The translations under genes were made by a program, and so were the position numbers. DNA of 64,000 bases from a virus, in IMG/VR virus record IMGVR_UViG_3300042691_037870, positions 62,448 to 126,447 of that record. One strand, 5' to 3'. Positions 3,134 to 59,326 of the stretch are shown in pieces. Below the pieces are notes generated by a model. That model was not told where the DNA came from and did not search any database. It worked only from the letters and a program-made list of their open reading frames with translations. Positions within the stretch are counted from its first letter, which is position 1, and every line of letters begins with the position of its first letter.

Positions 3134-3136
3134 ATC

Positions 3137-40789: not shown

Positions 40790-41476
40790 TTATTTATCTT
40801 TCATTTTTTCTGCGGGGTAATGACCGTCAGTTGGAGTAAAAGATTTGGTTTTCATTATTTCCAAAATTTCAGTATGACTATAAGGTCTAAACTGTGGGTG
40901 TGTATCTAACCCCACATCAAGAGATCTACCATTAGGACAATAACCGTCAACTTCTTCATTATTTGCAAGTGCCCATAAAACATCCATTTGGTTTTCTTCA
41001 AGCAATCTTTTAAGTAATGAAGCTGGTATTTGATGTTGTAATTTACCGTGACAGTGACCATGTAACATAAAACTACCGTGATGCCATTTATTCCAAGTTC
41101 TAAGTGGGTAATGACACAATACTATCTTTTGTCCATTTATGTTAATCTCACGATAAAAATCAACAGTTGTAAACATTTGTTGAAGTTCAACCATTTTGTG
41201 AATGTCAACATCATGATTGCCTAAAATTAGGTGAACGGTTTTACAACGAATACGATTACGAAATTCAATAATTTTTTCAGGGCCTTGGAATGCAACATCA
41301 CCAAGATGAAAAAGAACGTCATCGCGCTTTACGCAATCGTTAATATTTTTTATGACAGTTTCGTCATGTTCTTCTTTAGTTTTAAAATCTCGACAACCGC
41401 TTTTGTCTTCCCATCGAGATACTCCACTTACAATGTTTTTATGATTGTAGTGACTGTCAGATGTGTAATAAATCAT
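40790..41476 (-). CDS. Calcineurin-like metallophosphoesterase
   Basis: SDSH, LGD, GNHD, HYP and HGHCH motifs. Confidence 0.9.
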   Translation of the reverse strand: MIYYTSDSHYNHKNIVSGVSRWEDKSGCRDFKTKEEHDETVIKNINDCVKRDDVLFHLGDVAFQGPEKIIEFRNRIRCKTVHLILGNHDVDIHKMVELQQMFTTVDFYREININGQKIVLCHYPLRTWNKWHHGSFMLHGHCHGKLQHQIPASLLKRLLEENQMDVLWALANNEEVDGYCPNGRSLDVGLDTHPQFRPYSHTEILEIMKTKSFTPTDGHYPAEKMKDK

Positions 41477-41478
41477 TT

Positions 41479-42348
41479 TTAATCTAAGTTAATTTTTGAG
41501 ATCCAATATTCTAAACTGTGGGTAGGTTTCCAGCCAAGAATACTTTCTGTTTGTGTTTCTATTTTTGCGGAACTTAAACGTTCTCCGCGACGTTCTGGTA
41601 CTATTTCATAAGGATGTTGAAACATTTCAGCTACCTGTAAAATTGAATATTCCTTCCCAGATCTTAAATGCCATTCTCCGTTATATGAAACTTTACTTGC
41701 AGCTATAAGTCCGGAAACAATATCATTTATGTGAGTAAAGTCACGTGTTTGTGTTCCAGGATATACTACAGTAAGTGGAACACCTTCAGATTTTTGTCTT
41801 TCAAAAATTCCGATAACAGTTGCATAGTCTCCAGCTGTGATTTGGCCTGGTCCATATACATTAAAGAAATAGCAAATTTCATAATCAAGATCAAACCACT
41901 CTCCATAGTTTTTAATGAGCTCAACCATTTTTGCTTTTGCCCATGAATATGGAGAAAGATTTTCATCTTTGCCATTATTACCAAATTTTGATGAACTTGC
42001 TGAATAAATTAATTTAGCGCCCCATCTTCTGCAAAGTTCAAGAACTTTAGGTGTACCTCCAAGAATGGTTTGGTTTACATATGCAACATCATCAAAAGAT
42101 TTTACAATTCTTGAATATTCTCCAAAATGATAAACTAAATCAAATGTTCCTTTATCGTTAGAGAACGCGTATGTAATATCCCAAGTATCTCCAGTTAAGT
42201 ATTTTACGCCTTCTACGTGATTTTCTTTCTTACCTGTAAAATAATTATCGTATGATGTTATTTCTGCATCTGGATAGTCTATTCTTAATCTTTTAATTAG
42301 GTTTGAACCAACAAATCCAGCTCCACCCGTAACTAATATTTTCTTCAT
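41479..42348 (-). CDS. NAD-dependent sugar epimerase/dehydratase
   Basis: TGGAGFVGS, SSS, YSWAK (YxxxK), FNVYGP and RDFTH motifs. Confidence 0.9.
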   Translation of the reverse strand: MKKILVTGGAGFVGSNLIKRLRIDYPDAEITSYDNYFTGKKENHVEGVKYLTGDTWDITYAFSNDKGTFDLVYHFGEYSRIVKSFDDVAYVNQTILGGTPKVLELCRRWGAKLIYSASSSKFGNNGKDENLSPYSWAKAKMVELIKNYGEWFDLDYEICYFFNVYGPGQITAGDYATVIGIFERQKSEGVPLTVVYPGTQTRDFTHINDIVSGLIAASKVSYNGEWHLRSGKEYSILQVAEMFQHPYEIVPERRGERLSSAKIETQTESILGWKPTHSLEYWISKINLD

Positions 42349-42609
42349 TTACTTATTTTCAAAATTCCACCCATTGTTTAAATCATAATCTAACCAAGTG
42401 CATAGGTGAGTATCAACTATCATTGAGGAACTTGTCCATTCCCCACTTTTTTTTCTTTTAACAATTACGTGTATGTATTCAGGATCTTGCGGATCTTCAA
42501 TGTACTCACGAACGATAGGACTTCTTGGTTTAATCATTCTATGAATTACTCTTGCTGTTGCAAGATATGCCTGTTCGTCTTCTTGTGAATAGTTACCCCA
42601 TTTCGCCAT
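42349..42609 (-). CDS. Hypothetical protein
   Basis: 86 aa. Confidence 0.65.
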   Translation of the reverse strand: MAKWGNYSQEDEQAYLATARVIHRMIKPRSPIVREYIEDPQDPEYIHVIVKRKKSGEWTSSSMIVDTHLCTWLDYDLNNGWNFENK

Positions 42610-43033
42610 CGATCTTTCTTAAAAATTTTTGATATTGTGCAATTAGTTTTTCAAGATTTTCACGCCCTTTAGGATTTGCACTATGAACATAACATTCAGG
42701 AAACGGCATTTTAGTAGCTTCACAATGTGAAATTAACCAAAATAGACAATCCTCTCCTGTCTTATTAACAAAATGAGCATCATTTGGATTAGGCGGATTA
42801 TCGTGACCACCATTTTCAAAATACCATTTTGTGTGTTCTACATGCAAGTCATGGTCAAATGAAATCACAGATGGGAATTCTGAATGCTCCCAATTATATC
42901 TGATGATTCTGGTAAATTCATCAAAACTTGAAACCATTATCCAATCTTTACACTCATAAAGATGAGCCAATTCAGGAAACTTTTTTGCGCTGTCAGCGGG
43001 CTTACGATGATCGTCTAAATAAAGTTTATACAT
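42593..43033 (-). CDS. Cyclic-phosphate-processing receiver domain protein (second paralog)
   Basis: LYLDDHR, ISFDHDL, KTG and HSANPKG motifs; start moved to MYKLY (43033), downstream of the promoter. Confidence 0.8.
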   Translation of the reverse strand: MYKLYLDDHRKPADSAKKFPELAHLYECKDWIMVSSFDEFTRIIRYNWEHSEFPSVISFDHDLHVEHTKWYFENGGHDNPPNPNDAHFVNKTGEDCLFWLISHCEATKMPFPECYVHSANPKGRENLEKLIAQYQKFLRKIDGEMG

Positions 43034-43056
43034 ATCTTCTCCTTTATTATTATATG

Positions 43057-43111
43057 TAAATATAAACAAAAAGTTCTGAAGATAAGTATCCCAGAACTAA
43101 AAGTTATTAAC
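43057..43111 (-). promoter_or_regulatory. Class I promoter with embedded terminator hairpin
   Basis: GTTAATAAC box, TATATTTA, AGTTCTG/CAGAACT hairpin. Confidence 0.75.
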
Positions 43112-43118
43112 AATTTAA

Positions 43119-44057
43119 CTACTTGGTAACACTCCACTCAGGATTATCTTTTAAAGTTTCTTTAATATCATTATTGCGATACTCATTTAAAAGATCAATT
43201 GTTTCATCTGTTAATTTTTCTTTAAACCAATCTTCATATATTTTACGATACACAAGAGCCATAACACCAAAAATTGGTCCAGGTTCTGTGTTCATCTCAA
43301 ATACATAAAGTTTCCCATCTTTGGATTCTGCTACATCAACAGCATAAAAATCTAATCCTTTATGAGCATCAGAAAAATAACTACAAAGTTTAATTATGTT
43401 TTCTGCAGGTTTACCGTGTGTAAGAATGTAAGCAAAGTTTGTTTCTTCATTAGCTTTCTTTTTTGAAATATCTTTAGTGGATTCATCAAGAGGTTCTCGT
43501 TTACACCACTGAAGTATTTCTCCTCTCCATACAAAAAATCTATGTTCACTCTTAATGTCAATCTTTTCAGAAAACAAGGAAAACTTACTCAAATCAGCTT
43601 CATCAAGTTCTTTCTTATCTTTAAAAACTTGAATACCTAAACCGCTATGACGATTGTCAGGCTTAGCAACAATAGGAAAATTAAGTTTGCTAATTTCTTT
43701 AGGATTAGATACCGAAGGCACCATGTAATTGCTGTCTTTGTGTTTTTCGGTAAATGCTGATTTTGAAGAAACATTTTCACGAGCGTCCGGCTTATTATAA
43801 ACTTGCTTTAAATCAATTTCACCGCTTTTAATTAATTGCTCAAGCGCTGTTACATCATAATTAAGAACAGGAAATTCGTGAGAAATGTTTTTTGTTTTTC
43901 TTGTGATTATTTTCCAATAATCTTTTGCTTTAAACTCGGAACCCGTGATATGCGAATCTTCAAGCTTTTCTGCTCGAGTAATCATCACTTTTTTTAGTTG
44001 TGATTTTGTAGATTCATTTAAAAAATCCTGAAAAGGAAGTAGGTTCTTGGTAAACAT
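43119..44057 (-). CDS. ATP-grasp ligase (RimK-like) with capsid-targeting-like N-terminus
   Basis: FPIVAKP...SGLGI, EHR and YAVDV...YVFEMNTEPG motifs; N-terminus LLPFQDFLNES. Confidence 0.8.
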   Translation of the reverse strand: MFTKNLLPFQDFLNESTKSQLKKVMITRAEKLEDSHITGSEFKAKDYWKIITRKTKNISHEFPVLNYDVTALEQLIKSGEIDLKQVYNKPDARENVSSKSAFTEKHKDSNYMVPSVSNPKEISKLNFPIVAKPDNRHSGLGIQVFKDKKELDEADLSKFSLFSEKIDIKSEHRFFVWRGEILQWCKREPLDESTKDISKKKANEETNFAYILTHGKPAENIIKLCSYFSDAHKGLDFYAVDVAESKDGKLYVFEMNTEPGPIFGVMALVYRKIYEDWFKEKLTDETIDLLNEYRNNDIKETLKDNPEWSVTK

Positions 44058-44073: not shown

Positions 44074-44508
44074 TTATACAGTTTCTGCTGAACTCATATA
44101 TGAAATAACATTCTTAGGATTTTCAAGTTTATTCATACATGTGCTAATCATTCCTTCGTAATCAGTTGGCACAGAGTAATCAGAGATTAAAGAAGATTTT
44201 CTGTAAACTGGGATAATGCTTGCAGTGTTTTCCATTGGAGAAATTTCCACAATTTTAAATACTGATAGTGCTAATCCGTGTTTATCTTCAAAAACCTTTG
44301 CAATATGATCTCCTGGTACGATTGGAACCAGCGCTTGTTTTTCTTTTTCTTTATTTAAGAAAACTGCAGGTTTTGATTCACCTTCATTTCCTAATATAGC
44401 GGTAGCTCTTCTAAGATCCGCGAATTTCATTGTGCTTTCCCATAGACAAGGTACTCCTGATCTTGTTCTTGCAATTTTAATTTTCTTCTCTTTAATTTCG
44501 GTTTCCAT
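44074..44508 (-). CDS. Hypothetical protein
   Basis: 144 aa, last gene of the modification operon. Confidence 0.7.
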   Translation of the reverse strand: METEIKEKKIKIARTRSGVPCLWESTMKFADLRRATAILGNEGESKPAVFLNKEKEKQALVPIVPGDHIAKVFEDKHGLALSVFKIVEISPMENTASIIPVYRKSSLISDYSVPTDYEGMISTCMNKLENPKNVISYMSSAETV

Positions 44509-44510
44509 AG

Positions 44511-45362
44511 TTATTGAATAAAAAAGTATTTGGTTAATATTTGTTTTGAAATTTCTTGTGTTATTTTTTCACCAGATTCTACTAAAGAATCTACATCGGA
44601 AATAAATTGTTTGCCTGCTGATGTTAATTCCATTTCATTATTACTTAATGTAAATAGAGGTTCACGAAGCAAAAACATAATTGGCTCTTTAACTTTTTCT
44701 TTTACGATCTGATCCGCTAATTCAAAATGTCTTTCATAAAAATGAATGTTATCAGCACAATGATAATAAGTACCAAGTTCCAATTCAGTATATTTATCTC
44801 TAAGCAATTTCCACATAGTTTGCTGTACAAATGCAAAGAAAGGAGCGTCATAAGATAACCCATAAAAAATATCGTTAGATCTCATTTGTACTTTCATATT
44901 AAGTTTATCATTCTTAATCCAAAAGTTAAGATATATTGTACAAACGAAATCTTTATTACCTTTATACTGAACTGAAGGTCTACTTACAAAAGCGATTGCT
45001 TGCCTAGTATTCTTATCATTCAGTAATGAATCAAGCGCCCATTGTAATTGCTCACCAAATAACATAAATCCATAGTTAGAATTGATTTCATTATTTTCAT
45101 CAGCAATATTTTTCCAAAAAGATGAAAAATGATTAATGTAGTCAATGTTTCTGTCTCGCTTTAAATACCAAGACATTTCACCAAGAAAATATTTAAAGTT
45201 AAAAGGTCTAACCTCAAAGTCAGGAATTGCAAACAGTGGATTAATCGTTAATCTTTCCATTTCCAATTCTTTAACCTTTAATCCTCTGGGTGCAGAAACT
45301 GAGCCTTGTGTTTCAATCTTATTAATTAATTTGTGGTATTCTGTATTAAGATTATTATTCAT
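44511..45362 (-). CDS. dCMP hydroxymethylase-like thymidylate synthase homolog (T4 gp42-like)
   Basis: TRQA, DFVCT (catalytic Cys) and MRSNDIFYGLSYD, with Asp at the position that is Asn in dUMP-specific ThyA. Confidence 0.8.
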   Translation of the reverse strand: MNNNLNTEYHKLINKIETQGSVSAPRGLKVKELEMERLTINPLFAIPDFEVRPFNFKYFLGEMSWYLKRDRNIDYINHFSSFWKNIADENNEINSNYGFMLFGEQLQWALDSLLNDKNTRQAIAFVSRPSVQYKGNKDFVCTIYLNFWIKNDKLNMKVQMRSNDIFYGLSYDAPFFAFVQQTMWKLLRDKYTELELGTYYHCADNIHFYERHFELADQIVKEKVKEPIMFLLREPLFTLSNNEMELTSAGKQFISDVDSLVESGEKITQEISKQILTKYFFIQ

Positions 45363-45918
45363 TTAGTAGTTGTTTTACTTGATTAATGATACTTTCTTTA
45401 GACACATACGAATCACCTTCATTTACTTTAATTGCGAGTTTATGTATAATTTTTGAATCTTTAAAAGCTTTCATAAAAACTTCTAATTCAGCTCGCTTAT
45501 CATCAAGTTTTGCAGAGTATGATTCTCCGTCATCTTTCTTTACAATAAATTCAGGATCTGCATAAAGATAAACAAGATACACATCAGGATCTTTATGAAA
45601 TTCATATTCTTCTTCAAGTTGCATAACCCAATTTTCAGGGTTTGAGTTACGATACAGGGAACCGTAAACCAACTCTCCAAGGTGTGCACGATTCCATATC
45701 ATAAGATTATTTTGTTGATAACGACGGGACTTTGTTACACGGTAATTTTCAAATTCCCAATTAAACGAATCTTTTTGATATGTGGTTTTATCTTCATTAG
45801 TGCTTCCTTTGGGAAATGACCAATGTCTTTTAATTATGTTAGGATATTCAGCAGAAATAGCATTGATTAAAGAATCTTTACCACAACGATCTTGTCCTTC
45901 TATTATAAGTAATTTCAT
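45355..45918 (-). CDS. dNMP (thymidylate-like) kinase
   Basis: IIEGQDRCGKDS P-loop and NR.HLGELVYG..YR motif. Confidence 0.85.
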   Translation of the reverse strand: MKLLIIEGQDRCGKDSLINAISAEYPNIIKRHWSFPKGSTNEDKTTYQKDSFNWEFENYRVTKSRRYQQNNLMIWNRAHLGELVYGSLYRNSNPENWVMQLEEEYEFHKDPDVYLVYLYADPEFIVKKDDGESYSAKLDDKRAELEVFMKAFKDSKIIHKLAIKVNEGDSYVSKESIINQVKQLLNE

Positions 45919-45923
45919 ATAAA

Positions 45924-45949
45924 TTATATCATAAAAAGTTAATAAAGTT
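45924..45949 (-). promoter_or_regulatory. Class II promoter
   Basis: AACT-N17-TATAA. Confidence 0.6.
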
Positions 45950-45952
45950 TCA

Positions 45953-47167
45953 TTAAAATAAAACTTTTGATCGCATTTTATTTTCAGCGTAATCGACTTT
46001 TTGTGTTACATTATTCTGTTTTACAAAGTCACCACCAAATTCAGTAATTTCACCTTTAATAAAACGTATAACTTCAGTAGTCCAATCACTTGCGGTTTTT
46101 ACAGGAACATTTTGGCAAATGTGATTCCAATGACCACCTTGTAAATCAAAATCATGAGGTAATCCCATTAAGTGCATTGCTTCACGAACAGTTATACCTC
46201 TTTCACCATTAGGGTGTACAATCCCAGAGTTCTTAGCAATAATTGCATTTGTTGCTTCATTAAAAAGTAAAGGACTTGCATCCCATACACCTTTACCATC
46301 TTTAGCTTTTGCTTCTGCTCTTTCACATAATCTCCAAACATCACGTTTTTCGTTTTCTTTACCCCATATAATAGCATCATTTATCCAGCCTTCACGCCAA
46401 ATTAATTGTAAAACTGTCATTGCTGGAGATGCAATAGCATCTTTAATATCGTAGTTTTTATGTTTTAAGAACTGAATCCATTGATTATCTTCCAATGCGC
46501 CTAAACCAAACCCTTTATCCATTAAAGTACAACCTTCAGGTATTTCTTCAAGATAATCTTTTAGTAAAGGTGCTTCGCGTTTATGATAACCTAAAATAGG
46601 AGCTTCACTGTCTTTCCAGAAAAAGTAAAAAGAACGGTGTCTGTGTTGTGGGATACCGTGAACGAATGTATCAGTTTTAATTAAAGACAATGAATAACCA
46701 TTTCTTTTACCAATTTCTTTCAATCTTTCAACCACTCCAGCACCCATAGAAGTATAAAGTCCTGGTGCATTTTCGCCCCAGAATACTTTAGGTTTAACAT
46801 GTTCTAAAACCAATTCAGCTGATTTGTACATCCATTCATTTTGAGCAGCATCAGAACCTCTTGCTTTTTCGCTTGATCCGTTATTTGAATTAAGCATTGA
46901 AAGACCTGCACAAGGACAAACAGCAGATACAAAATCCACATCTTCAAAAAGAGCTTTTTGATCTTCGGGTAATACGTTTTCTTCGCCTTCAATTACAATG
47001 TATGGTGTTTTCTTAAAATAGTTTGTAGCGTGAGAATCATTTCCTGCGAATGGCGGATATGATAAAAAGAATGCAGGATCATGTCCTACTATTTTTGAGT
47101 TAGCCACTGTCATCCCACCTATAAGAGGTACGATTGATCCAAATTTAATTTTGTTTTTCTTTGCCAT
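45953..47167 (-). CDS. DNA cytosine-C5 methyltransferase-like protein with atypical motif I
   Basis: PCAGLS (IV), GENAP (VI), PQHRHR (VIII), R.ITVREAMHLMGLP (IX) and QNVP (X); motif I reads PLIGG rather than FxGxG. Confidence 0.8.
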   Translation of the reverse strand: MAKKNKIKFGSIVPLIGGMTVANSKIVGHDPAFFLSYPPFAGNDSHATNYFKKTPYIVIEGEENVLPEDQKALFEDVDFVSAVCPCAGLSMLNSNNGSSEKARGSDAAQNEWMYKSAELVLEHVKPKVFWGENAPGLYTSMGAGVVERLKEIGKRNGYSLSLIKTDTFVHGIPQHRHRSFYFFWKDSEAPILGYHKREAPLLKDYLEEIPEGCTLMDKGFGLGALEDNQWIQFLKHKNYDIKDAIASPAMTVLQLIWREGWINDAIIWGKENEKRDVWRLCERAEAKAKDGKGVWDASPLLFNEATNAIIAKNSGIVHPNGERGITVREAMHLMGLPHDFDLQGGHWNHICQNVPVKTASDWTTEVIRFIKGEITEFGGDFVKQNNVTQKVDYAENKMRSKVLF

Positions 47168-47169
47168 TT

Positions 47170-48564
47170 TTAAAATAATGATTTTGCTTGTAGTTCGGGT
47201 TTTTTTGGTGTTTTGCCTGAAAGATCTGCTAAGTCAGGTACTCGTGCAATTTCTTCACTAAACCCTTTTATCATTCTAACATTTATGCCTGCTCGCTCTA
47301 AGAATGGGTTAATTACATCACATAAGAATTCACCTTTGCGAACACCAAGTAAGAACTTTAATTGTAATTCTTTTACAAGTTTAATTCTTAATTGAGGGTT
47401 TGCCTCCATTTCTTCAATTTTAGCAAACATTTCTTGTGGAGTTTTTACTCTTAAGTAGTGATCTTTTGGTAATGTAGAAAATTGAGTATCATAATCAGGA
47501 TGAAAGAAAGGAACTACTCCGATCTTTAACATTTCTGCGTATTTACTTGTTACCCAATCAGGGCGAATAGGAATAATTAATGTATAGCGTGTATCTTTAA
47601 ATGTAGCATCAATTACGTCAGGTGTTTTATACCCTTGAAATTGTGTATAACCTTTAGTGAATCTTTCATCCCACTTACCATAAATTTTAAAGTTATCGCT
47701 GCCTGGTTGTGATAAGATCCATTTTTTAAGAGCTTCTAAACGGTAATCAACTTCAGCTTTTCCATAAGCTGATTGCATTGCTACGATTGCAAACTTAGTA
47801 TTACGTTCAGTATCAGGTGGGATGATAGTTTCACCTATCATATTTAATCTTTCAATACCAGAGTATGTAAGTTTAAGTGTTTCACTGATTTCTTTACCCT
47901 TTGAAGGTTCTGGGTAAGTATCATAATGTATAAACTCAATTGTGTCATTATATTGAGCAATACATTCACGAGGTCCATTTACAAGATCTCTCCATTTTTG
48001 TTTTTTCTTGATGTAACGTGGGTCTGTCATTACCATAAAGTATGGCAGTTTTGACATATTTAAGTAGTGAACCATTGGAGCGCTGTAGATTTGTGTCATA
48101 TCCAATGCGCCTGTCATTCTACTTGGATCTTTAATACTTGGAACAATTCCAGGTATGTTAACTAAGGTTAAACCTTGTGAAGCAAAACAGATACCAAAGT
48201 CAGGTTGTTCTAAGTGTTGAATTTTATCCCACAAATCTTTGTATCTACCTTGCTCTTCTGGAGTATGAGGTAATAGTTCGCCGTCTTCACCAGCACGACG
48301 CCCAGGCGGTACTTGTACATTAAATTCAGTATAGATATCTCTTAAAACTCCTCGAGGATCAAAAGCAACTTTTTCATCAAAGGTTAACTTTTTCCAATCA
48401 CTTCTTTGCATAATCCAAACTTCTGAGATATTTGGATTTCTTACTAAACCGTAAAAAAGTTTGTAATATTCCGAAGTACCATCGGAACGTTTTACATTTT
48501 CTTTACGAAATTTCATTGCAGATCCTAAAGGTGAAACTGCGATTTTTAAATTTTCAGTTTTCAT
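47170..48564 (-). CDS. T4 beta-glucosyltransferase-like (GT-B) DNA glycosyltransferase
   Basis: IYGKW...F.G...WVTSKYAEML..GVVPFFHPDYD aligns by eye with the BGT C-terminal donor-binding segment. Confidence 0.65.
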   Translation of the reverse strand: MKTENLKIAVSPLGSAMKFRKENVKRSDGTSEYYKLFYGLVRNPNISEVWIMQRSDWKKLTFDEKVAFDPRGVLRDIYTEFNVQVPPGRRAGEDGELLPHTPEEQGRYKDLWDKIQHLEQPDFGICFASQGLTLVNIPGIVPSIKDPSRMTGALDMTQIYSAPMVHYLNMSKLPYFMVMTDPRYIKKKQKWRDLVNGPRECIAQYNDTIEFIHYDTYPEPSKGKEISETLKLTYSGIERLNMIGETIIPPDTERNTKFAIVAMQSAYGKAEVDYRLEALKKWILSQPGSDNFKIYGKWDERFTKGYTQFQGYKTPDVIDATFKDTRYTLIIPIRPDWVTSKYAEMLKIGVVPFFHPDYDTQFSTLPKDHYLRVKTPQEMFAKIEEMEANPQLRIKLVKELQLKFLLGVRKGEFLCDVINPFLERAGINVRMIKGFSEEIARVPDLADLSGKTPKKPELQAKSLF

Positions 48565-48611
48565 TATTAACTTTTATTATTTATTTTCTATACATTTTTG
48601 TGAAAAAAGTT

Positions 48612-49286
48612 TTATTTAACTTTGCTATTAATATCAGAATAACTTTTTCTTTGTATTATCAAATAAGGGTTAGTAATTAAGTATCTGTTCTTATTCTTTT
48701 TGTCATCACGAATAAGTTTACGAAGAGCACGATCAGCAAAATACCCACGTTCAAATAGATTTTTCATTCTATCATAGATATCTTGAGTATTGCGAATGAT
48801 GTATGATTGAGAATTCCAAACGCTGACAGCAATATCTAAACCAGGCAAATATTCTTCTTTTTTATCATTTTTTGGATTTCTTAATCCACCTAAATAAATA
48901 AGATCCCAATCATCGGTTGTATTAATTGCTTTACTTATTGCTTCGTTAAAACTTTTAGGGTCTTTAATTTGAAAGTCATCTTCAAGCATGATAGCAATTT
49001 TAGTACCATCTGTTCCATATTCTTTTAAGAATTGTTCAATACAACGGACATGAGTAATACCACAACCAAATAATCCTTTTTGTGCTACTTCATCTTTTGT
49101 CACATGTCGATACTCACGATTAAGATAAGATTCCAATTCATCTTTTGGGTAATCTTTCCAATGAGTTGACATAAAGTATTCATAATTTTTTATATCAGCT
49201 GCTTGTAATTCTATATCGCATTCATCTCTACGGTCTTGACGAGACGCAAGATTCATTATGTAATATTTACTTACTTCTTTTAACAT
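48612..49286 (-). CDS. GT25-family glycosyltransferase
   Basis: MNL..RQDRR, GC..TH, MLEDD and WDLIYLGG motifs; probable start MLKEV at 49286. Confidence 0.85.
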   Translation of the reverse strand: MLKEVSKYYIMNLASRQDRRDECDIELQAADIKNYEYFMSTHWKDYPKDELESYLNREYRHVTKDEVAQKGLFGCGITHVRCIEQFLKEYGTDGTKIAIMLEDDFQIKDPKSFNEAISKAINTTDDWDLIYLGGLRNPKNDKKEEYLPGLDIAVSVWNSQSYIIRNTQDIYDRMKNLFERGYFADRALRKLIRDDKKNKNRYLITNPYLIIQRKSYSDINSKVK

Positions 49287-50680
49287 AATTCTTTTATTAA
49301 GTTTGTTTCTTTTAATTTGTTTCTCCAGTTGGTTACCCACCCGTTAACATCAAAATGTTCTTGCATTTCTTTCAAGATAGCAAGTCTTTCTTTTTCATTC
49401 TTATCGTAGTATTCAACTCGCTCACGTAATTCATCGGCATTCTTAACGGTTAGCTTTTCTTGAAATTTAAGAGGGATCCAAATACCTTCAGGGTCATACA
49501 TAAAATCAAAAATGGGTAATACTCCAAAATAAAGGTATTGAATATGACGATAAGTTAATCCGCCATTTGCTGAAACGTTTCTTGAAATAAAAGCAGTTTT
49601 ACATTTCTTAAGAACATTCATATATTCACCGTTTGGCATAAAGTCGCCACGGAAATTAGGATGTGCTTCAACTTCTTTACCTAAAGCATCAAAAGTTTCT
49701 TTATCCATTCCATAGATTAAACTTAACTTAAAATAAAGTTCTGCGCCTGGGTATGAAAAATCTTTAAAGAAATCTCTCCAAATCCACTTTCTTGCACCTT
49801 TATCATTTAATAAAGATCCTGCAAAGAAAAACGGAATTTTACCTCGTGAATCAAATTCATCAAGTAAGTTTTTCTTTTCAGGTTTAATGTTTTGCCAATG
49901 TGGTTCATAAACAAGATGTTGTAATTCACTGATTGGAGATGCATGAAGATTTCTTAAATGCCTTTTATCATCAGTAAAGTACCAAAATTTATGATTAACT
50001 TTTTTGTACTCAAAAAATGGTATTGCAGCAGAAGGATCCATAATCATAATATGAACTTTTGCATTATACATTTTTGAAACATGCTCCACGGTTGATAGCA
50101 TGATATTCTTATACATGTATCTAAATGCAAGTGGGGAAAATCCTTTTGCAGTGATACTAAATAATCTGTCATTAGTTTCACGAATTGCTTCAAGGACTTC
50201 TAAATCATCATCATCAAATGAATCAAAATAATCGTTAAATAAACCTTTAAGTTTTGGGTGTGTTGATAGCGGATTAAAAGGTAACATCAAGTTGTGATTA
50301 TCAATTATAATGATAGCATCAAATTGAGGTTCTTCTTTAAAGAAATCAATAATACATTCATCAATTTTGTTTTGATTATGTTCGTCTGATGTTTCTAATT
50401 CTTTCTTGCGAAATAGGTTACCTGATGCAGGATCTTTAAATATGCTATATTCACCTTTGTTTAAACGATAAACATTGGTTAAACCAAAAGCTTCTATTGA
50501 TTTTAACCCACCTTCAAAAAAGTAATAGATGTTATACTTTTCTTTCAGAATTTCCACAAGAGGAAAAACATATCCGTATGTATATTCACGTGTTTCAATT
50601 TGTGAAAGTGTAATTAAAAGATTCTTTTTGTTAGGATCGTTTTCAACAAAGTTTCTTTTTTCAAATTTGAATTTTTTCAT
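49280..50680 (-). CDS. Second BGT-like (GT-B) glycosyltransferase
   Basis: FFFAGS...LTYRH......VLPIFD..YDP...L.V.NADEL parallels the 47170 gene and T4 BGT. Confidence 0.55.
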   Translation of the reverse strand: MKKFKFEKRNFVENDPNKKNLLITLSQIETREYTYGYVFPLVEILKEKYNIYYFFEGGLKSIEAFGLTNVYRLNKGEYSIFKDPASGNLFRKKELETSDEHNQNKIDECIIDFFKEEPQFDAIIIIDNHNLMLPFNPLSTHPKLKGLFNDYFDSFDDDDLEVLEAIRETNDRLFSITAKGFSPLAFRYMYKNIMLSTVEHVSKMYNAKVHIMIMDPSAAIPFFEYKKVNHKFWYFTDDKRHLRNLHASPISELQHLVYEPHWQNIKPEKKNLLDEFDSRGKIPFFFAGSLLNDKGARKWIWRDFFKDFSYPGAELYFKLSLIYGMDKETFDALGKEVEAHPNFRGDFMPNGEYMNVLKKCKTAFISRNVSANGGLTYRHIQYLYFGVLPIFDFMYDPEGIWIPLKFQEKLTVKNADELRERVEYYDKNEKERLAILKEMQEHFDVNGWVTNWRNKLKETNLIKELC

Positions 50681-51471
50681 AAGTACTGACTAATTAACCA
50701 AGTATGTGAACTTTTTTGTGGGTTTTCTAAAATTTCTTTTTCAGTATACAGGTTTACATCTTTAAGATTTTGGGAATCGTATAAATGAACACTGTATGTA
50801 TTAAGTGTAATCTTATCAGGTCTAAATTGATGAAACAGTTCTTCTATTTTATAATGACTATATGGGTAAAAGAAATCCGACTTTACAATTTCAAAAGTAC
50901 CTGCAAGTTCTGGATCTTTACTTAAAGTTCTATGTACTCTTACACTTAATTCATCCCAGTATTTATCTCTACCTTTAGAACGAAAGTCTTTCCACATACC
51001 CAACCAAGTCTTTAAGTATTTTGAGTTAGGCGGCGCTACTATTACACCATTACCCATTGTCATTTTACGATTACTTAAATCACCTACAATATGAACATTG
51101 CGTTTAAGTAATGGGTCAAAATTCTTAACAGTAATTGTATCAAAATCACAATATACACCGCCTTGTGAAAGTAAAAGCTGTATACGAAACACATCAGAAA
51201 TATGTGCTGGGTGATGTAATGTATTTCCAAAAATGCTTTCTTGAGGTTGTACTATATGAAGTTTACAGTACTTACTTGCTCTTTCCCAATATTCACCAGT
51301 AGGCATTTCATTGGTAAAAAAGTTAATTTCATAATCAGGGTTATGAAACGCAAAAGACTTTACAGCTATATACCGCATAAGATCCCACTCAGTAGATCTT
51401 TTGCTTTTTTGATTATAGAAGTAAATAAAATGTCCTTTTTTCGATATTTTTATATTGTCTGTGAATAACAT
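50677..51471 (-). CDS. GT32/DXD-family glycosyltransferase
   Basis: AVKS...HNPD, AHISDVFR..LL...GGVYCDFD, FYP and HLY motifs. Confidence 0.85.
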   Translation of the reverse strand: MLFTDNIKISKKGHFIYFYNQKSKRSTEWDLMRYIAVKSFAFHNPDYEINFFTNEMPTGEYWERASKYCKLHIVQPQESIFGNTLHHPAHISDVFRIQLLLSQGGVYCDFDTITVKNFDPLLKRNVHIVGDLSNRKMTMGNGVIVAPPNSKYLKTWLGMWKDFRSKGRDKYWDELSVRVHRTLSKDPELAGTFEIVKSDFFYPYSHYKIEELFHQFRPDKITLNTYSVHLYDSQNLKDVNLYTEKEILENPQKSSHTWLISQYL

Positions 51472-51486
51472 AGGTAAGCGGTTTCT

Positions 51487-52083
51487 TTATATATACGAAC
51501 CTAAATTAAAGTAGATAGGTTTATAAACAATTTTAAAGTTTTTTATGATATCACGATGTGCTTCATGAAAACTTAAAGCTGCATTTAATCCAAACTCGCT
51601 ATCTTCATGTATAATTAAAGTATCTTCCTCAGAATTAAACTCATGTTCAATTTGAGAAAAAGCATAGTTGTATAAATCTGGAGAAGGCTTACGACTTACA
51701 CCTTGATAAACATCTGAACCTATAAGTTGAGAAAAATGATCTGACAGTTTGAGTTTTTCTAACATTTCATAAATAACATCATGAGTAGTATTTGATACTA
51801 TGATATGTTTTTCAGAAGGATGAAACTGATTCTTTAAAACTTCAACATCTTTCCAGTATTTGCTTAAATAGATTTCGTTCTTATTTTTTTTAACTTCAAG
51901 AATTTCTTCTGAAGTAAACCCATGTTCAGCCATGTACCCGTTAGAATTTGCATAAAGTTTATCAAATTCTTTAGGTGTTAGTTTAATGTCTTTAACTTGT
52001 TGTAAAGCATACTTGTATGATGAAAATATCGCATATCTTGTTAGTACGATAGTATCATCCCAATCATAAAAATTCCATTTCAT
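51487..52083 (-). CDS. HAD-family phosphatase
   Basis: DWDDT, VSN, RKPSPD and EDS..G motifs. Confidence 0.85.
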   Translation of the reverse strand: MKWNFYDWDDTIVLTRYAIFSSYKYALQQVKDIKLTPKEFDKLYANSNGYMAEHGFTSEEILEVKKNKNEIYLSKYWKDVEVLKNQFHPSEKHIIVSNTTHDVIYEMLEKLKLSDHFSQLIGSDVYQGVSRKPSPDLYNYAFSQIEHEFNSEEDTLIIHEDSEFGLNAALSFHEAHRDIIKNFKIVYKPIYFNLGSYI

Positions 52084-52763
52084 TATACGTATTCCAATTC
52101 TTCTCGGCTTGTGATATCAAACCAATGCATATTAAGTGGATGCACGCCTCGTGATTCGCCAAGGTTAAACAATTCAGTAATTTCATATTCTCCTCTACGA
52201 GAAGGCTGTAATTCTTTTACTTTTTCTATCATATGTTGATTAAACATCATAAAGCCAACAAAGAATCTGCCCTCATCATAAAGATGTGGTTTTTCAATAA
52301 TTGTGTTATCATCTTCTACATATGATAATCTGAGGTTTTCTTTACTCTTGGTAAAAGTTTTATAAGTAGCAACACAATCGTGAGATTCACCTGTAAAGTC
52401 AATTAATCCATCATAGTAATTATCACCAAATAAGACAATAAATTTTTCTTTAACTTTATTTACCCAAGGAAAAAGTGCAACTGCTGTTCCATACTTATCT
52501 TCAGGTTGGTGATCAATTTCAATTGATAGCTTATTAGTTTCATTTAACTGATAGTCTTTAACTAATGTTTGTGAAATTTTTTCTACTTCACGATTAATAT
52601 CAGCACCAAACTTTTCATTGGTTGTAATGTAAATAGTACGAATACCGTTTTCAATACAAAAACGAATATTCCACTCGAGTAAAGATTTTTTCTTAAAGAC
52701 GGTAAGAACCTTATTTCCACCGTATCTTGTTGCGGAGCCGCCGCAGAGAATAATGCCTGTCAT
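52083..52763 (-). CDS. Sugar-phosphate nucleotidyltransferase (RmlA-like)
   Basis: GIILCGGSATR...K, Q....GTA, LFGDN, EKP, PSRRGEYEIT and WFDI motifs. Confidence 0.88.
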   Translation of the reverse strand: MTGIILCGGSATRYGGNKVLTVFKKKSLLEWNIRFCIENGIRTIYITTNEKFGADINREVEKISQTLVKDYQLNETNKLSIEIDHQPEDKYGTAVALFPWVNKVKEKFIVLFGDNYYDGLIDFTGESHDCVATYKTFTKSKENLRLSYVEDDNTIIEKPHLYDEGRFFVGFMMFNQHMIEKVKELQPSRRGEYEITELFNLGESRGVHPLNMHWFDITSREELEYV

Positions 52764-53527
52764 AAAATTTTTAAAAGTATTTGAAATTCAGCGTATCTTT
52801 GATAGTAAACGATAAAGTTTTTCTTTATGTAAGGAAACATACGAATATAATTTGCAATCATCAGTAAATGAATTAACCTAAAGATTTCTGGGTATTCATT
52901 TTTAGGTACTAATTGTGAAAACTCAAAAGTTTTCTTCATATCATTAAAGTATATGTTTTGGTAAAACTTGGCAATGTCTTGTAACCAAGATGACCACATG
53001 CCTTCTTTATAGATAGGATCTATCAGTACTAAACGATCACCAGATACCAAGATGTTTTCCATTGTAAAGTCACCGTGAGATGTACTTTTAAAAAGATCAA
53101 AATCTTGTGTATACTTTTTTAGAGTATCGTAATATTTTTGTAAAAGATCTAATTCGTCTTTCTCAAAAACATCAGTATTCTTGTTAATTACATCTTTAAG
53201 ATAATTAATGTAAGTTGTAAATGAAGGGATTTCTTTATCAGACTGTAGATTTGCGCATACATTAATTAACTCAAAAACTTGTGGTAAATGATAATCTTCA
53301 ATTCTTTCAGCATTATCAATGTATTCCATTAAGTAACCCCATCTGCCAGGTTCTTCATGCCATTCAATATTACGAGGTGCAATTATAGAATCTTTAGAAG
53401 CTATAAGTTTAAGATGATTCATTTGTTCTTTCATAAATGAAATTCTTGCAGAATCATTTGTGTACTTATAAATTCTATCATCTCTCATTACGAATAATTC
53501 AGATGTATAGCCTATATGTTTTTTCAT
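52760..53527 (-). CDS. APH/choline-kinase-like phosphotransferase
   Basis: HGDFTMENIL, LIDP and DIAK motifs. Confidence 0.85.
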   Translation of the reverse strand: MKKHIGYTSELFVMRDDRIYKYTNDSARISFMKEQMNHLKLIASKDSIIAPRNIEWHEEPGRWGYLMEYIDNAERIEDYHLPQVFELINVCANLQSDKEIPSFTTYINYLKDVINKNTDVFEKDELDLLQKYYDTLKKYTQDFDLFKSTSHGDFTMENILVSGDRLVLIDPIYKEGMWSSWLQDIAKFYQNIYFNDMKKTFEFSQLVPKNEYPEIFRLIHLLMIANYIRMFPYIKKNFIVYYQRYAEFQILLKIL

Positions 53528-53544
53528 TTAATAGTAATTTAATT

Positions 53545-53570
53545 TTATATACATTAACTTGGATAAAGTT
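53545..53570 (-). promoter_or_regulatory. Class II promoter heading the modification operon
   Basis: GAACTTT...TATAA with a 17-nt spacer. Confidence 0.65.
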
Positions 53571-53656: not shown

Positions 53657-54463
53657 TTAATTTACTTCAATATCCACATTGTAGACATCTCCGAGATCTC
53701 CGTATTCTAAACAATCAATATAAGCAACTTTTTCAGTTTCCCATATTGTGCTTTGTGGAGTATGTCCAACGATTTGAAAATAACCATCAATTGCATGATT
53801 ATTTAATATGTGAGGTCTTACCCAAAGCGGGCCTGCCCATCTTTGCCATCCGCCTGAAATACGGTCTACATTATAAATAGAACTTAACTTCATTTCCCAA
53901 CCTAAGTTAAGTTTTTCATCAATCGTTGCTTCTTTATAATGCTGAGCAACATCAAAAAATCTGCCATCAGCTTTGAAAAGTTCTGTTTCAAATTCTTTAT
54001 ACCATTCAGTAGTAACTCCTGCATGCGTCCAAAGATAATTTTCAATTCTATAAGCAAGTTGAAAAAGATTATTGTTCTTTACATACAGTTCATAAAAATC
54101 ATGTTTCATTTCAGCTCTATAACCTGAACATTGTTGATCACTTACTATGTAATGAACATCATGATTACCTAAAAGTAAAACCACTTTATCCGGTAGAACT
54201 GTTTTAAAGAATATGATATCTTCAAGATTCTTTTTCATATCAATATTTTTAATACTAAAAGAATCTACATAATCACCAACAAAAATGATCTTATCGACAT
54301 TTTTAAATCCATAAATTTCAGGATTCCAAGAATCTTCAACAGGACCCCCATTTGCTACAACTCCTTTCCAAGTTTCAAATTCCTCTGGTGAACCGTGTGT
54401 AAAGTACATCCAATCGTTTCTACCGTGAATGTCTCCAATTGACATTGTTTTAATCGTTTTCAT
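53657..54463 (-). CDS. Metallophosphoesterase (Ser/Thr phosphatase-like)
   Basis: GDIHG, GDYVD, GNHD, HAG and GHT motifs. Confidence 0.9.
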   Translation of the reverse strand: MKTIKTMSIGDIHGRNDWMYFTHGSPEEFETWKGVVANGGPVEDSWNPEIYGFKNVDKIIFVGDYVDSFSIKNIDMKKNLEDIIFFKTVLPDKVVLLLGNHDVHYIVSDQQCSGYRAEMKHDFYELYVKNNNLFQLAYRIENYLWTHAGVTTEWYKEFETELFKADGRFFDVAQHYKEATIDEKLNLGWEMKLSSIYNVDRISGGWQRWAGPLWVRPHILNNHAIDGYFQIVGHTPQSTIWETEKVAYIDCLEYGDLGDVYNVDIEVN

Positions 54464-54494: not shown

Positions 54495-54589
54495 TTATAT
54501 TACTTAAATACATAAAAGTTTTAATTTGGTAAAACAAAAATAAAACAAAAAACCCAGATTAAAAAATATCTGGGGGTAAAGTTATTAAC
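54495..54589 (-). promoter_or_regulatory. Tandem class II (54495-54520) and class I (54535-54589) promoters
   Basis: AACT-N17-TATAA; GTTAATAAC box plus TATTTTTG with a CCCAGAT/ATCTGGG hairpin. Confidence 0.7.
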
Positions 54590-54910: not shown

Positions 54911-57517
54911 TTAGTCCCACCAGACCCATTCATTAATATTATAATCCCAACCATCTTTATTAACTGTCTTTGTAATATAAGTAGTGGGTGTGATTGCGTA
55001 TGTAATTAAATCAGAATTAGATTCTATGCCTAATACAACATAAACTCTATCACCAGAAACTCTCAAGCTATATAAATAGTCAAAGTCGGTTGTAATAGTT
55101 TGAATTAAGCTTCCTTCAATATCATATACATCTATTACATACTTATTATCGTTTTCTGCATCCGGCCAGGCATTATAAAGATGTGTTTTATTTAAGTCAT
55201 ACTCACCCAAGAACCCATTAAGTTGAACTTCTGCAGGAGGTGTCACATCTGAGGATAATATATATGCTTCATCTTGACTTATTATAATAAGAGTATTTCC
55301 ATCTCTATGATAGTCAATATAATTAGTGTTAAAATTTCGATATATATCAATAAAATCAGCAGTTCCGAGCTGAGTGATTGTGTTTCCTAACGATCCTTGT
55401 GCTGAATTCCACCAATATGTTAAATTCTGACTGTAATCAGCCATATAAAAGGTATCATAATTAGTACCCCAAAAATTATTTGTAGTAGTCCAAATCCAAT
55501 CATCATCTATAAACCCCTCTTGTTGAATATCCCAAATTCCCCAGAATTGTGTGTTGGGTGCTTGACTATCATCATTATGCGTTAGTAGAACATATTCATC
55601 TCCAAGTGCAACAGTATTAAAATAAGGACCTGTACTTTCATAATTCGTTACTGTCTCTATTAAATCAATACTACCGTTTTGTTTTAACTTAAGCAATTGT
55701 AATTTAGTAGAATCTGGAAAATTCACATAAAGTAAAAATGGTACAGCAAGTCCATCATCATTTGTAGATAACCCAAATGTTGTAACTTCTTTAATATCTA
55801 TTGTGATATTATCAATAGGAGCAGAACCACCAATCATATCTCCCATGATTATTACCTGATCATCAGGGCTGTATCCGTTACCCATTGTATTTACTGCAAT
55901 TGTGGAAATATTTCGATTAGAATCAGTAACCACATCAAATGTTACCGTATCTCCTGCAAAACCGGTAGGGTTTATTACAGCAACATTTGTGTAAGTCTGA
56001 TTTTCTCCGTATGGCCCAGGATTTGCTGGCAGAGGTAAGATAGGATCAATCTGAAGAACTCCACCAGTTTCAGGTTCATATGAATATAGTTCACCTGTAA
56101 CTGCATTAGACCAAATTATTTTTAGAGGAAAATATCTAGTCATTCTCCCGTCAGACATACTATCTTTATAAATACACACTGCAAAAGATTCATCGCCAAA
56201 TGGTGATGGCGACCAAGAAGAAAAACTTTTAAGCGAATTAGATTGAATTTCTTGATAACTACCGTAGACTTTATTATAATCAAAAGATATAAACCAGCAG
56301 CCAAGATCATCAGGATTAATACTTATAATTGTGTCATCTAAACCGTTAGCATCCGCATGTAGCCATATAATTAATTTATTTGTACCGATTAACCATTCTT
56401 GCTGGACAGTATTAGCATTATATACTGAAATATCAATGTCAGTATATGTGCCATCAGTTTGAATTATTCTTAAGGTTTCTACGCGTTCTCCTTGGAATAC
56501 AACTTCTTGCTCTTCGGAGCTACCCTGGACGTTTTCATTTATAGTAATAGTTGTGCCATCAATATCAATTACATAGGGAGTTAAGCCTGTAAAAGTACTA
56601 ATATCTGGGATTGCATATCCTATTTTAATTTCTGGATTAGGCTCGAGTAATGTTATAAAATTATCACCCTCGTTATAAGATACAGTACTTTCTGTACTAC
56701 TTTCTTCTCCTATTACAATATACATAAAATTACCTACACTTTTCAGCCCATTACCGTAATCAGGACCGAGAATATCCGTAATCTCTGTTATAACTCCTGT
56801 ATGTGCATTAACTAAGTAAGTTCTTGTTTTTTCAAGAACAGTATCGTAATAGTAAATAGAAAATGTTCCATCTATTGTACAGCTATCCCAACTAAACCAA
56901 TCATAGTATACATACTCATCACTAACGTTATTAAAAGTTTCTGTGTAAATCGTATCTCCTCCCCACCATTTAAGGGTTACTAACCCGGATATTGGGTCTG
57001 TGTATGATAATAAAGAAGCAAATCCATCTAAAGAACCATTGTTACGTGATGAATTACCAATATTAACAGTTTCTATAAGATTTCCACCTGCATCTATGAA
57101 GTAAAAAATTCTGTTATTTGAAGAATCAACTTTTTCAAAGATCCAGCCTCGGCCTTCAACCAGTCCTGTAAATTCCAAGTCATTTACAGATGTATAATCA
57201 GGGTCAAGTTCAATCTCTTCGCTAAAAGTTAAATTGTCATAATTAACTATAAAGAATTTAAGAGCACCTGATGAAAGATCTTCATAATAAACAGCTACGT
57301 GTTTTGCACTAATAACTTGTGCTTGCGGATTAACATTAGCAGAACCTCCCCCTCCAGCACCTCCGCTAGAAGATTGTGATTGTGATTGTGATTTCATAGC
57401 AGCCTCCCATAGCGCTTGCATTTCTTCTTCTTCTTGAAGCAATCTCCACTTGCGTTCAAGTTCAGATTGGTTAATACTTAAGTTTCTATGTCTATCAAAG
57501 AATTGATCTTTTCTCAT
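54911..57517 (-). CDS. Large acidic beta-rich putative virion (fibre/decoration) protein
   Basis: Short helical N-terminus, Gly linker, beta-rich body; GATATATA at 57534-57541. Confidence 0.55.
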   Translation of the reverse strand: MRKDQFFDRHRNLSINQSELERKWRLLQEEEEMQALWEAAMKSQSQSQSSSGGAGGGGSANVNPQAQVISAKHVAVYYEDLSSGALKFFIVNYDNLTFSEEIELDPDYTSVNDLEFTGLVEGRGWIFEKVDSSNNRIFYFIDAGGNLIETVNIGNSSRNNGSLDGFASLLSYTDPISGLVTLKWWGGDTIYTETFNNVSDEYVYYDWFSWDSCTIDGTFSIYYYDTVLEKTRTYLVNAHTGVITEITDILGPDYGNGLKSVGNFMYIVIGEESSTESTVSYNEGDNFITLLEPNPEIKIGYAIPDISTFTGLTPYVIDIDGTTITINENVQGSSEEQEVVFQGERVETLRIIQTDGTYTDIDISVYNANTVQQEWLIGTNKLIIWLHADANGLDDTIISINPDDLGCWFISFDYNKVYGSYQEIQSNSLKSFSSWSPSPFGDESFAVCIYKDSMSDGRMTRYFPLKIIWSNAVTGELYSYEPETGGVLQIDPILPLPANPGPYGENQTYTNVAVINPTGFAGDTVTFDVVTDSNRNISTIAVNTMGNGYSPDDQVIIMGDMIGGSAPIDNITIDIKEVTTFGLSTNDDGLAVPFLLYVNFPDSTKLQLLKLKQNGSIDLIETVTNYESTGPYFNTVALGDEYVLLTHNDDSQAPNTQFWGIWDIQQEGFIDDDWIWTTTNNFWGTNYDTFYMADYSQNLTYWWNSAQGSLGNTITQLGTADFIDIYRNFNTNYIDYHRDGNTLIIISQDEAYILSSDVTPPAEVQLNGFLGEYDLNKTHLYNAWPDAENDNKYVIDVYDIEGSLIQTITTDFDYLYSLRVSGDRVYVVLGIESNSDLITYAITPTTYITKTVNKDGWDYNINEWVWWD

Positions 57518-59299: not shown

Positions 59300-59326
59300 T
59301 ATTTAAAGGATTTTGTTTATATATTT

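Follow-up and report, generated by a model that had tools for sequence, protein, structure and literature searches.

A ten-gene viral cluster predicted to make 5-hydroxymethylcytosine before replication and to glycosylate it using a phage-made sugar donor

In bacteriophage T4, which also encodes the kinase gp1 and alpha- and beta-glucosyltransferases, the modified base is made before replication by way of 5-hydroxymethyl-dCMP (5hmdCMP), the product of the thymidylate synthase (TS) homolog gp42, a dCMP hydroxymethylase, whilst T2 and T6 carry a gentiobiosyl form of glucosyl-5-hydroxymethylcytosine (glucosyl-5hmC). For the poly-arabinosyl-5-hydroxycytosine (5hoC) clusters of RB69, DLP3 and HY126, a recent report (Lee 2026; PMC13326640) describes a 5-hydroxy-dCMP (5hodCMP) synthase, an arabinose-5-phosphate isomerase and GT-B arabinosyltransferases, together with the kinase/pyrophosphorylase AfhE and the HAD phosphatase AfhF that lead to UDP-arabinose; in these phages the DNA receives its sugars one after another. 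For metavirome glycan clusters, the study of Pyle, Lund, O'Toole and Saleh (10.1101/2023.12.21.572611) reports mono- to tri-saccharides on cytosine derivatives and GT-B enzymes from IMG/VR that neighbour ThyS, secondary glycosyltransferases (GTs), epimerases, APH proteins and methyltransferases; with contig 53 of that study, the formation of mono- and di-heptosyl-5hmC in E. coli required an HAD-APH protein and a cytidylyltransferase as well as a BGT-like GT-B. Here we describe a cluster in the IMG/VR record IMGVR_UViG_3300042691_037870 from a large uncultured phage: ten minus-strand open reading frames (ORFs) fill positions 44511-53527 of the window (the whole stretch of 64,000 bases that was analysed, positions 62448-126447 of the 126,447-base record), with an intergenic spacing of -8 to +47 nt. 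We consider it likely that these genes specify a pathway in which 5hmC is made before replication and the DNA is then glycosylated by several enzymes using a phage-made donor.

The ten families that a first-pass annotation, made from the sequence alone, had placed here are all recovered on the minus strand by the ORF list together with Pfam and PHROGs; its title of nine genes needs correction, as ten were listed and ten are present. Seven of the ten proteins exceed the curated Pfam cut-off (Pfam bits are written below as score/curated cut-off), with the small-molecule kinase, the transferase GT-B2 and the deoxynucleoside monophosphate kinase falling under it. PHROGs provides a family for six of the ten and none for the small-molecule kinase, the GT32 enzyme and the two large transferases, and every NCBIfam match of the cluster proteins is far under its cut-off. 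The contig is about 49% complete according to CheckV; the window has a GC content of about 32% with nearly all genes on the minus strand, and megablast against 50,697 phage records returned no similar DNA for it. Comparisons were made with three IMG/VR loci (L002, L004 and L006; 50-80% protein identity), which are all phage kin of the window and to which every count of three relatives refers, and with an 84%-complete relative (G001) of the window's own contig (G000).

The nature of the base is indicated by the TS homolog (283 aa; 44511-45362; Thymidylat_synt 76.7/24.3), a predicted dCMP hydroxymethylase. Its closest solved structure is the dCMP hydroxymethylase T4 gp42 (1b49, E 1.5e-19), with solved thymidylate synthases at about 1e-11 to 1e-14 and the CMP hydroxymethylase MilA at 7.6e-12; blastp of RB69 gp48 against the TS homolog gives E 1.2e-5. 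A code in E. coli ThyA numbering, taken from Lee 2026 (PMC13326640), connects N177D with cytosine specificity and an acidic residue at L143 with a non-methyl product, whilst D169N is the mark of flavin-dependent 5hodCMP synthases (RB69, DLP3 and others). E. coli ThyA, T4 gp42, RB69 gp48, the window protein and its three orthologs were aligned using MAFFT. The TS homolog has its catalytic Cys at ThyA C146 (DFVC, compared to DFMC in T4 and APC in E. coli) and exhibits N177D (LSYD, compared to FRND in T4 and LPFN in E. coli); as in T4, an Asp lies three residues before the Cys (L143D), at a point where MAFFT placed a gap and the register was set by hand. D169 is kept (RSND), whereas RB69 gp48 reads RSQN (D169N). 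The Asp-bearing motif MRSNDIFYGLSYD, which the first-pass annotation had quoted and likened to T4 gp42, is found in the TS homolog, and the window protein and all three orthologs read RSND...LSYD or near variants together with D-F-V-C: all four signature positions are T4-type. Both the closest solved relative and these four positions argue for an enzyme of the dCMP-hydroxymethylase type, and since D169 is kept alongside N177D and the acidic residue three before the Cys, 5hmdCMP is its predicted product. The option of 5-hydroxycytosine that had also been considered is disfavoured, since the published diagnostic D169N is absent from the TS homolog. G001 holds a second, canonical ThyA (302 bits) beside its copy of the TS homolog, and therefore the divergent copy is not the thymidylate synthase of that phage; T4 likewise has td besides gene 42.

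On the adjoining gene (45355-45918) a thymidylate-kinase-like protein of 187 aa is encoded (Thymidylate_kin 18.5/27; phrog_761 'thymidylate kinase', E 2.5e-9), a predicted 5hmdCMP kinase. This kinase adjoins the TS homolog in all three relatives, and Tmk-like kinases also adjoin the TS homologs of DLP3, RB69 and RL38J1 (PMC13326640, Table 1). In the scheme that we propose, the TS homolog would convert dCMP to 5hmdCMP, the signature residues being those of such an enzyme; the Tmk-like kinase would then form the diphosphate and host enzymes the triphosphate, from which the phage polymerase would write 5hmC by analogy with T4 and RB69. A post-replicative TET route was set aside: Tet_JBP gave no match on the window's contig or in the three relatives, a weak negative as the control genomes gave none either. 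The TS homolog also exhibits a C-terminal extension of ~60 residues (225-283) that is not in T4 gp42 or RB69 gp48 and ends in a conserved YF(F/W/Y)IQ in all four phages (window, L002, L004 and L006).

After replication, the 5-CH2OH group would receive its first sugar from one or more BGT-like GT-B enzymes. Of the two candidates, GT-B1 (466 aa; 49280-50680; Glyco_trans_1_2, PF13524, 27.4/25) matches no solved structure at the sequence level (phmmer against the PDB; no BGT chain) and has no tblastn match in the phage collection. By sequence it does not fall within the family of T4 beta-glucosyltransferase (BGT), as Pfam gives only PF13524 at E<=0.01. A structure model obtained from 21 sequences (pLDDT 87.3) displays a GT-B fold, with T4 BGT as top Foldseek match (E 9.1e-7) and other GT-B enzymes almost level with it; over the whole chain the fold is closest to T4 BGT, with an identity of 11-13% in the structural alignment. 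Structure modelling and comparison with T4 BGT had been suggested as a check of both large transferases; GT-B1 is by its model structurally closest to T4 BGT, and DNA is its presumed target. The second candidate, GT-B2 (464 aa; 47170-48564; Glyco_trans_1_2 20.8/25, below cut-off), matches GT-B1 in the C-terminal domain (BLASTP 29% over 69 residues, E 3e-5) and the GT-B1 family with an hhalign probability of 93.8% over 121 C-terminal columns. No solved relative was found for it by sequence; in a language-model atlas it falls among viral hypothetical clusters, plus lower-ranked ones with minority PF13524 members. Orthologs of GT-B2 occur in all three relatives (50-79% identity), and homologs that adjoin TS genes are found in Pseudoalteromonas phage XG4 (30%) and in Enterococcus phages (23-24%). 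The label BGT-like, which had been given to both large transferases, is hence shown for GT-B1 only, by its fold; for GT-B2 a relation to the GT-B1 family was seen in the C-terminal domain.

Extension or branching of the glycan would fall to two GT-A enzymes, and this is the weakest step of the scheme. The GT25-type glycosyltransferase (48612-49286; PF01755 Glyco_transf_25 36.7/24; phrog_2835 'glucosyltransferase', E 1.7e-15) has a 48% ortholog in L006, and L004 also holds a GT25 gene; its true start is probably the ATG at 49286 (224 aa) and not the GTG at 49340 given in the ORF list, because the match of the relative begins at residue 19. The GT32-type enzyme (DXD, GT-A; 264 aa; 50677-51471; PF04488 Gly_transf_sug 46.2/23; PF04572 22.5/22.3) has a 33% ortholog within the L004 cluster. 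Both enzymes thus exceed the curated cut-off. From four transferases and a donor pathway the first-pass annotation had suggested a di- to tetra-saccharide or a non-glucose adduct; the action of GT25 and GT32 on DNA and the number and identity of the sugars are matters that we can only infer.

The donor would be made by three enzymes encoded at the upstream end of the cluster. The product of 52760-53527 (255 aa; TCAD9 28.2/40) is a small-molecule kinase of APH/choline-kinase fold: structure modelling and the motifs HGDFTMEN and IDPI, invariant in 16/16 homologs, confirm the fold as it had been called, with a sugar or sugar phosphate as predicted substrate. A Rosetta-stone search scored no fused forms of the kinase, a type of evidence that is weak. 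The sugar-1-phosphate nucleotidyltransferase (226 aa; 52083-52763; PF00483 NTP_transferase 49.3/21.2) has glucose-1-phosphate thymidylyltransferase as closest solved relative (3hl3, E 3.1e-5) and is 30% identical to gp012 of Synechococcus phage S-CBWM1; gp012 and gp013 of this phage are the nearest phage relatives of the donor genes, and gp012 lies between a small phosphatase gene and a kinase-like gene. The third protein, a predicted sugar-phosphate phosphatase (198 aa; 51487-52083; PF13419 HAD_2 52.9/23.8), is a HAD enzyme of the capped type IA with a DWDDT motif at its N-terminus and a 63% ortholog that adjoins the NTP-transferase in L002. Together, these three would convert a host sugar phosphate into an NDP-sugar used by at least one of the transferases. 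That a kinase, a phosphatase and a nucleotidyltransferase form a donor pathway, as had been proposed, has working parallels in two reports, namely AfhE/AfhF (PMC13326640) and contig 53 (10.1101/2023.12.21.572611).

A possible accessory enzyme for tailoring the donor is encoded 2.2 kb downstream on the minus strand: an extended-SDR NDP-sugar epimerase/dehydratase (289 aa; 41479-42348; PF01370, 110 bits), which was not found in the three related loci. Its best NCBIfam match is ADP-heptose 6-epimerase (80 bits, below cut-off), and this match together with the transaldolase of L002 had made heptose a candidate sugar. In a phmmer search of solved structures, however, the SDR enzyme scores only 39-51 bits against HldD, compared to 82-86 bits against Pal and UDP-glucuronate decarboxylase, so that heptose was dropped and the sugar left unassigned.

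Comparison of the related loci reveals a fixed core surrounded by variable parts. All three keep the order GT-B1, GT-B2, C5-methyltransferase look-alike, nucleotide kinase, TS homolog and a conserved gene for a 144-aa protein, which in the window lies at 44074-44508 (minus strand). This last gene accompanies the cluster in all three relatives, its orthologs (54-61%) standing directly after the TS gene; the protein has no Pfam or NCBIfam match, and its best score in a protein atlas was an uninformative 0.81. Beyond the core, L006 holds GT25, an exonuclease/endonuclease/phosphatase gene, a fusion of NTP-transferase and APH kinase, and a 259-aa protein with a sub-threshold TET-associated-glycosyltransferase match (19.6/27.5). 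L004 holds GT25, GT32, such a fusion and, upstream, two FkbM-type methyltransferases, whilst L002 holds, between its two GT-B genes, those for an EcKL-like kinase and a transaldolase together with the NTP-transferase and the HAD enzyme. Fusions with the architecture of AfhE (NTP-transferase plus APH) occur in L004, L006 and XG4. Since accessory transferases and donor cassette are swapped among relatives, each phage probably has a glycan of its own, as one would expect if diversifying selection acts on an anti-restriction coat. Some of these genes deserve mention in their own right: the exonuclease/endonuclease/phosphatase gene of L006 (13070-13723) sits between look-alike and nucleotide kinase in this relative only; the two FkbM-type genes of L004 (3891-6345), just upstream of the donor fusion and the GTs, may encode sugar O-methylases; and a transaldolase/fructose-6-phosphate aldolase gene (2487-3188; 141 bits) heads the donor cassette of L002.

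More independent support than that from the three kin loci comes from two cultured phages. Pseudoalteromonas phage vB_Psh_XG4 (PP712099.1, an unannotated record), about 30% identical, carries the module: within 6.6 kb there are a T4-type TS (SDFMC, RSCD, FPND), a small HAD enzyme, an NTP-transferase-APH fusion, a GT-B2-like gene, a 368-aa ORF and the look-alike, and within 7.6 kb a 176-aa ORF that is MazG-like by eye and has a relative in G001 only. No GT25 or GT32 match was obtained in XG4. We know of no report on the chemistry of XG4 DNA, for which no specific search was made. G001 holds homologs of the small HAD enzyme of XG4 (AfhF-like), of the fusion and of the MazG-like protein, all three of which are missing from the window's contig. 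In Enterococcus phage Planchet (OX422066.1 50620-57148; L033), a kinase, a TS/pyrimidine hydroxymethylase, a dUTPase, a polynucleotide kinase and three annotated glycosyltransferases stand together, and one of these glycosyltransferases is 24% identical to GT-B2.

The C5 DNA-methyltransferase look-alike (404 aa; 45953-47167; PF00145 DNA_methylase 64/22) is the least understood part of the cluster. Its Pfam match spans residues 68-344 only. The motifs CPCAGLS (IV), WGENAPG (VI), PQHRHR (VIII) and CQNVPV (X) are invariant in all four orthologs, whereas VPLIGG is found where FxGxG would be expected, the canonical motif I of C5-methyltransferases that forms the SAM pocket. phmmer found no solved relative at E<=0.001. 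An exhaustive search places 889 representative clusters in the family at E<=0.001, of which 303 are left at the stricter threshold of E<=1e-30. Among the 150 matches listed, 125 are of 370-440 aa: none of these 125 full-length representatives has FxGxG in its first 45 residues, 94 combine PC, EN[AVS] and QxRxR, and 24 end in LF; the 25 commonest motif I patterns listed are all (I/V/Q)PL(I/V/L/A)GG. Among cultured phages the family is carried by XG4 and by S-TIM5-like cyanophages, 6 records in total. In cyanophage S-TIM61 the ThyA near the look-alike has an ordinary PCH motif, and therefore the look-alike family is not confined to hmC phages. In our scheme the look-alike would act on the same DNA as the transferases.

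A second feature of this protein is its C-terminus: the look-alike ends in SKVLF and GT-B2 in AKSLF. Such LF ends are rare, being found in 3/134 non-overlapping ORFs of G000 and 6/299 of G001, and they are enriched in the cluster (2/10 against 1/124 in G000, Fisher p 0.015; 3/10 against 3/289 in G001, p 5e-4, a test that is not independent of the first). The six of G001 belong to a C-terminal fragment of PolB (RTQLF), the look-alike, GT25, GT-B2, a GH16 protein and an uncharacterised protein. From work on T4 and RB69, such C-terminal tails are known to dock on the sliding clamp. Because no T4-type clamp was recognised (PF09116, PF02916) and the XG4 homologs are without ...LF tails, the idea of a clamp tail is only a lead. 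The family-B polymerase of G001 was itself matched in two ORFs ~16 kb apart (459-aa and 413-aa frames; C1:42084-43262 and 59302-59652; L018 and L017), and is thus either split or interrupted by inserted genes. One bolder account, which we regard as improbable, is that the look-alike is no methylase: with the C5-activating Cys chemistry kept and the cofactor pocket rebuilt, it would ride the replication machinery together with GT-B2, both having the ...LF tail of the G001 polymerase, and install on 5hmC a linkage or group that no known phage makes, whilst the other transferases would build a branched glycan of 3-4 sugars with the phage-made sugar. A covalent-catalysis-driven substitution at the 5-methylene carbon is a possibility for the reaction of these two proteins.

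Several points weigh against a pre-replicative 5hmC pathway with subsequent glycosylation. The synteny of the three closest loci is that of kin and hence not independent evidence. Pfam returned no MazG match in four contigs, and the window's contig (~49% complete) has no dCTPase candidate. GT-B2 remains under its Pfam cut-off and the GT-B fold was modelled for GT-B1 only, whilst GT25 and GT32 are classically families of envelope glycans whose tie to DNA is by position only. In NCBIfam the HAD enzyme matches models for pyrimidine 5'-nucleotidase and beta-PGM best, albeit weakly and far below cut-off, and because of the pyrimidine 5'-nucleotidases among them the enzyme could act on nucleotides instead of sugar phosphates. 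A C5-methylase look-alike in a genome where the C5 positions should be filled is unexplained by the scheme. Finally, the donor trio shows no blastp match to RB69 gp51-53 at E<=0.1 (best 0.30-0.37, over short stretches), and no match to a SIS (PF01380) or SIS_2 (PF13580) isomerase was obtained on the 126-kb contig (~49% complete). On these last two results membership of the arabinose route was rejected and the analogy kept: from the sequence comparison, the trio is rated as analogous, not orthologous, to RB69 gp51-53.

The position of GT25 and GT32 leads to the question of whether these enzymes act on DNA at all. It could be that nothing beyond the base change and perhaps a single sugar is meant for DNA, with GT25, GT32 and the donor trio remodelling a glycan of the host envelope, be it LPS, teichoic acid or capsule, or else glycosylating virion proteins: Pfam describes GT25 and GT32 as enzymes of LPS and other envelope or cellular glycans, these are together with the trio exactly the parts that vary among the relatives, and about 65% of the GT-containing viral contigs of Pyle et al. 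are without a base-modification neighbour (10.1101/2023.12.21.572611). However, the genes in question are interleaved with those of the DNA enzymes, at gaps of <=47 nt, rather than tacked on one end. In L004, moreover, GT32 stands between look-alike and nucleotide kinase, and GT25 has the ...LF tail that is also seen in GT-B2, the look-alike and the polymerase; GT-A enzymes are also proven DNA glycosyltransferases in other phage clusters (same source). We therefore hold a role outside DNA to be unlikely for these genes. It is very improbable, in our estimate, that the TS homolog makes 5hodCMP as in RB69 and DLP3, with sugars on 5hoC, or 5-methyl-dCMP, with plain 5-methylcytosine DNA. The donor set, the Tmk-like kinase and several GT-Bs around a TS homolog do copy the arabinosyl-5hoC layout of DLP3 and RB69 (PMC13326640), and the number of tested enzymes behind the D169N rule is limited. 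Against this stand the Asp at position 169 in the window and all three relatives, the acidic residue at the L143 position, which goes with hydroxymethyl products and not with methyl ones (PMC13326640), and T4 gp42 as the closest solved relative, with RB69 gp48 only at the blastp level given above.

Doubtful, but to be taken more seriously, is the view that the look-alike is an ordinary orphan cytosine methylase outside the glycan pathway, which shields residual cytosine or DNA made before the hmC pool. A DNA_methylase score well over cut-off, the intact catalytic motifs PC, ENx, QxRxR and QNVP, and the family member near an ordinary ThyA in S-TIM61 would all fit such a role. It sits less well with the conserved (I/V)PL(I/V)GG that replaces FxGxG throughout the full-length representatives listed, and with a Pfam match that begins only after residue 67, leaving the region of the SAM motifs uncovered. 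The look-alike furthermore stays beside GT-B2 in all three relatives and in the 30%-identical XG4, and shares the C-terminal tail of GT-B2. Having weighed these alternatives, we retain the pre-replicative 5hmC pathway with DNA glycosylation as the likely reading of the cluster.

As for the surroundings of the cluster, promoter and terminator scans gave counts no better than in shuffled sequence. The sole clean terminator-like site nearby is a minus-strand hairpin with a T-run at 54553-54574, upstream of a Metallophos gene (53657-54463), and the transcription unit may therefore begin there and not at the kinase gene. Just upstream of the cluster, an 868-aa ORF (54911-57517) has no Pfam match at E<=0.01. 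The stretches 40790-44057 and 59533-61161 hold a Metallophos gene, a cREC_REC domain protein and an R2K-clade ATP-grasp protein (N-terminus MFTKNLLPFQDFLNE), with a TROVE (Ro60-like) protein 15 kb off; this list of parts resembles RNA-repair systems. The ATP-grasp, cREC and Metallophos neighbours were judged to be outside the pathway, as they are absent from the clusters of the relatives save for a weak cREC match in L006.

Whether a given restriction, CRISPR or type IV defence system can cut phage DNA is decided by its sugar coat, and such coats also block standard enzymes for sequencing and cloning. The cluster predicts a glycan on hmC that is longer or more varied than in the T-even phages and stems in part from a phage-made donor; in its relatives the glycan genes appear to be swapped as cassettes around a fixed core, which includes the large uncharacterised look-alike family with its 889 representative clusters. 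With Pseudoalteromonas phage XG4, a cultured carrier of the module exists, and new DNA glycosyltransferases and donor pathways would be useful as tools for 5hmC labelling.

The window shares with T4 all four signature residues of the TS homolog and, as predicted, the pre-replicative route through 5hmdCMP; genes 42 and b-gt are adjacent in T4, as are TS and transferase genes in the window. The window differs in exhibiting four transferases of three families compared to one or two in T4, and a phage-encoded donor pathway compared to host UDP-glucose. Its nucleotide kinase is Tmk-like and not gp1-like, the look-alike is additional, and similarity to BGT at the sequence level is absent. Like the RB69, DLP3 and HY126 clusters, the window surrounds its TS homolog with a Tmk-like kinase, several GT-Bs, an APH-fold kinase, an NTP-transferase and a HAD enzyme. 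It differs in that kinase and nucleotidyltransferase are separate with the kinase first, whereas AfhE joins an N-terminal nucleotidyltransferase to a C-terminal APH-fold kinase; in that the HAD enzyme is of the capped IA type; and in that two GT-As and the look-alike are present and the TS keeps D169. The base in the window would be made before replication, whilst in the clusters tested by Pyle et al. 5hmC arises post-replicatively from a methylase and a TET-type oxidase; the likeness to contig 53 is drawn from its published description, in which the nucleotidyltransferase is described as a cytidylyltransferase. XG4 differs from the window in its fused donor enzymes and in an identity of about 30%. 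The combination of a T4-type hydroxymethylase with two GT-Bs, two GT-As, a split and non-orthologous donor trio and the look-alike was found in none of the characterised systems considered here; nor did our literature search find a phage paper that joins dCMP hydroxymethylase, cytosine methyltransferase and glycosyltransferase, although the contig may already figure in published tables. The expectation of a modification more elaborate than that of the T-even phages is fair, even though di- and tri-saccharides on cytosine derivatives are already on record. In kind, the cluster is a known one, standing alongside T-even glucosyl-hmC, poly-arabinosyl-5hoC and the metavirome glycan clusters (Pyle 2023; Lee 2026).

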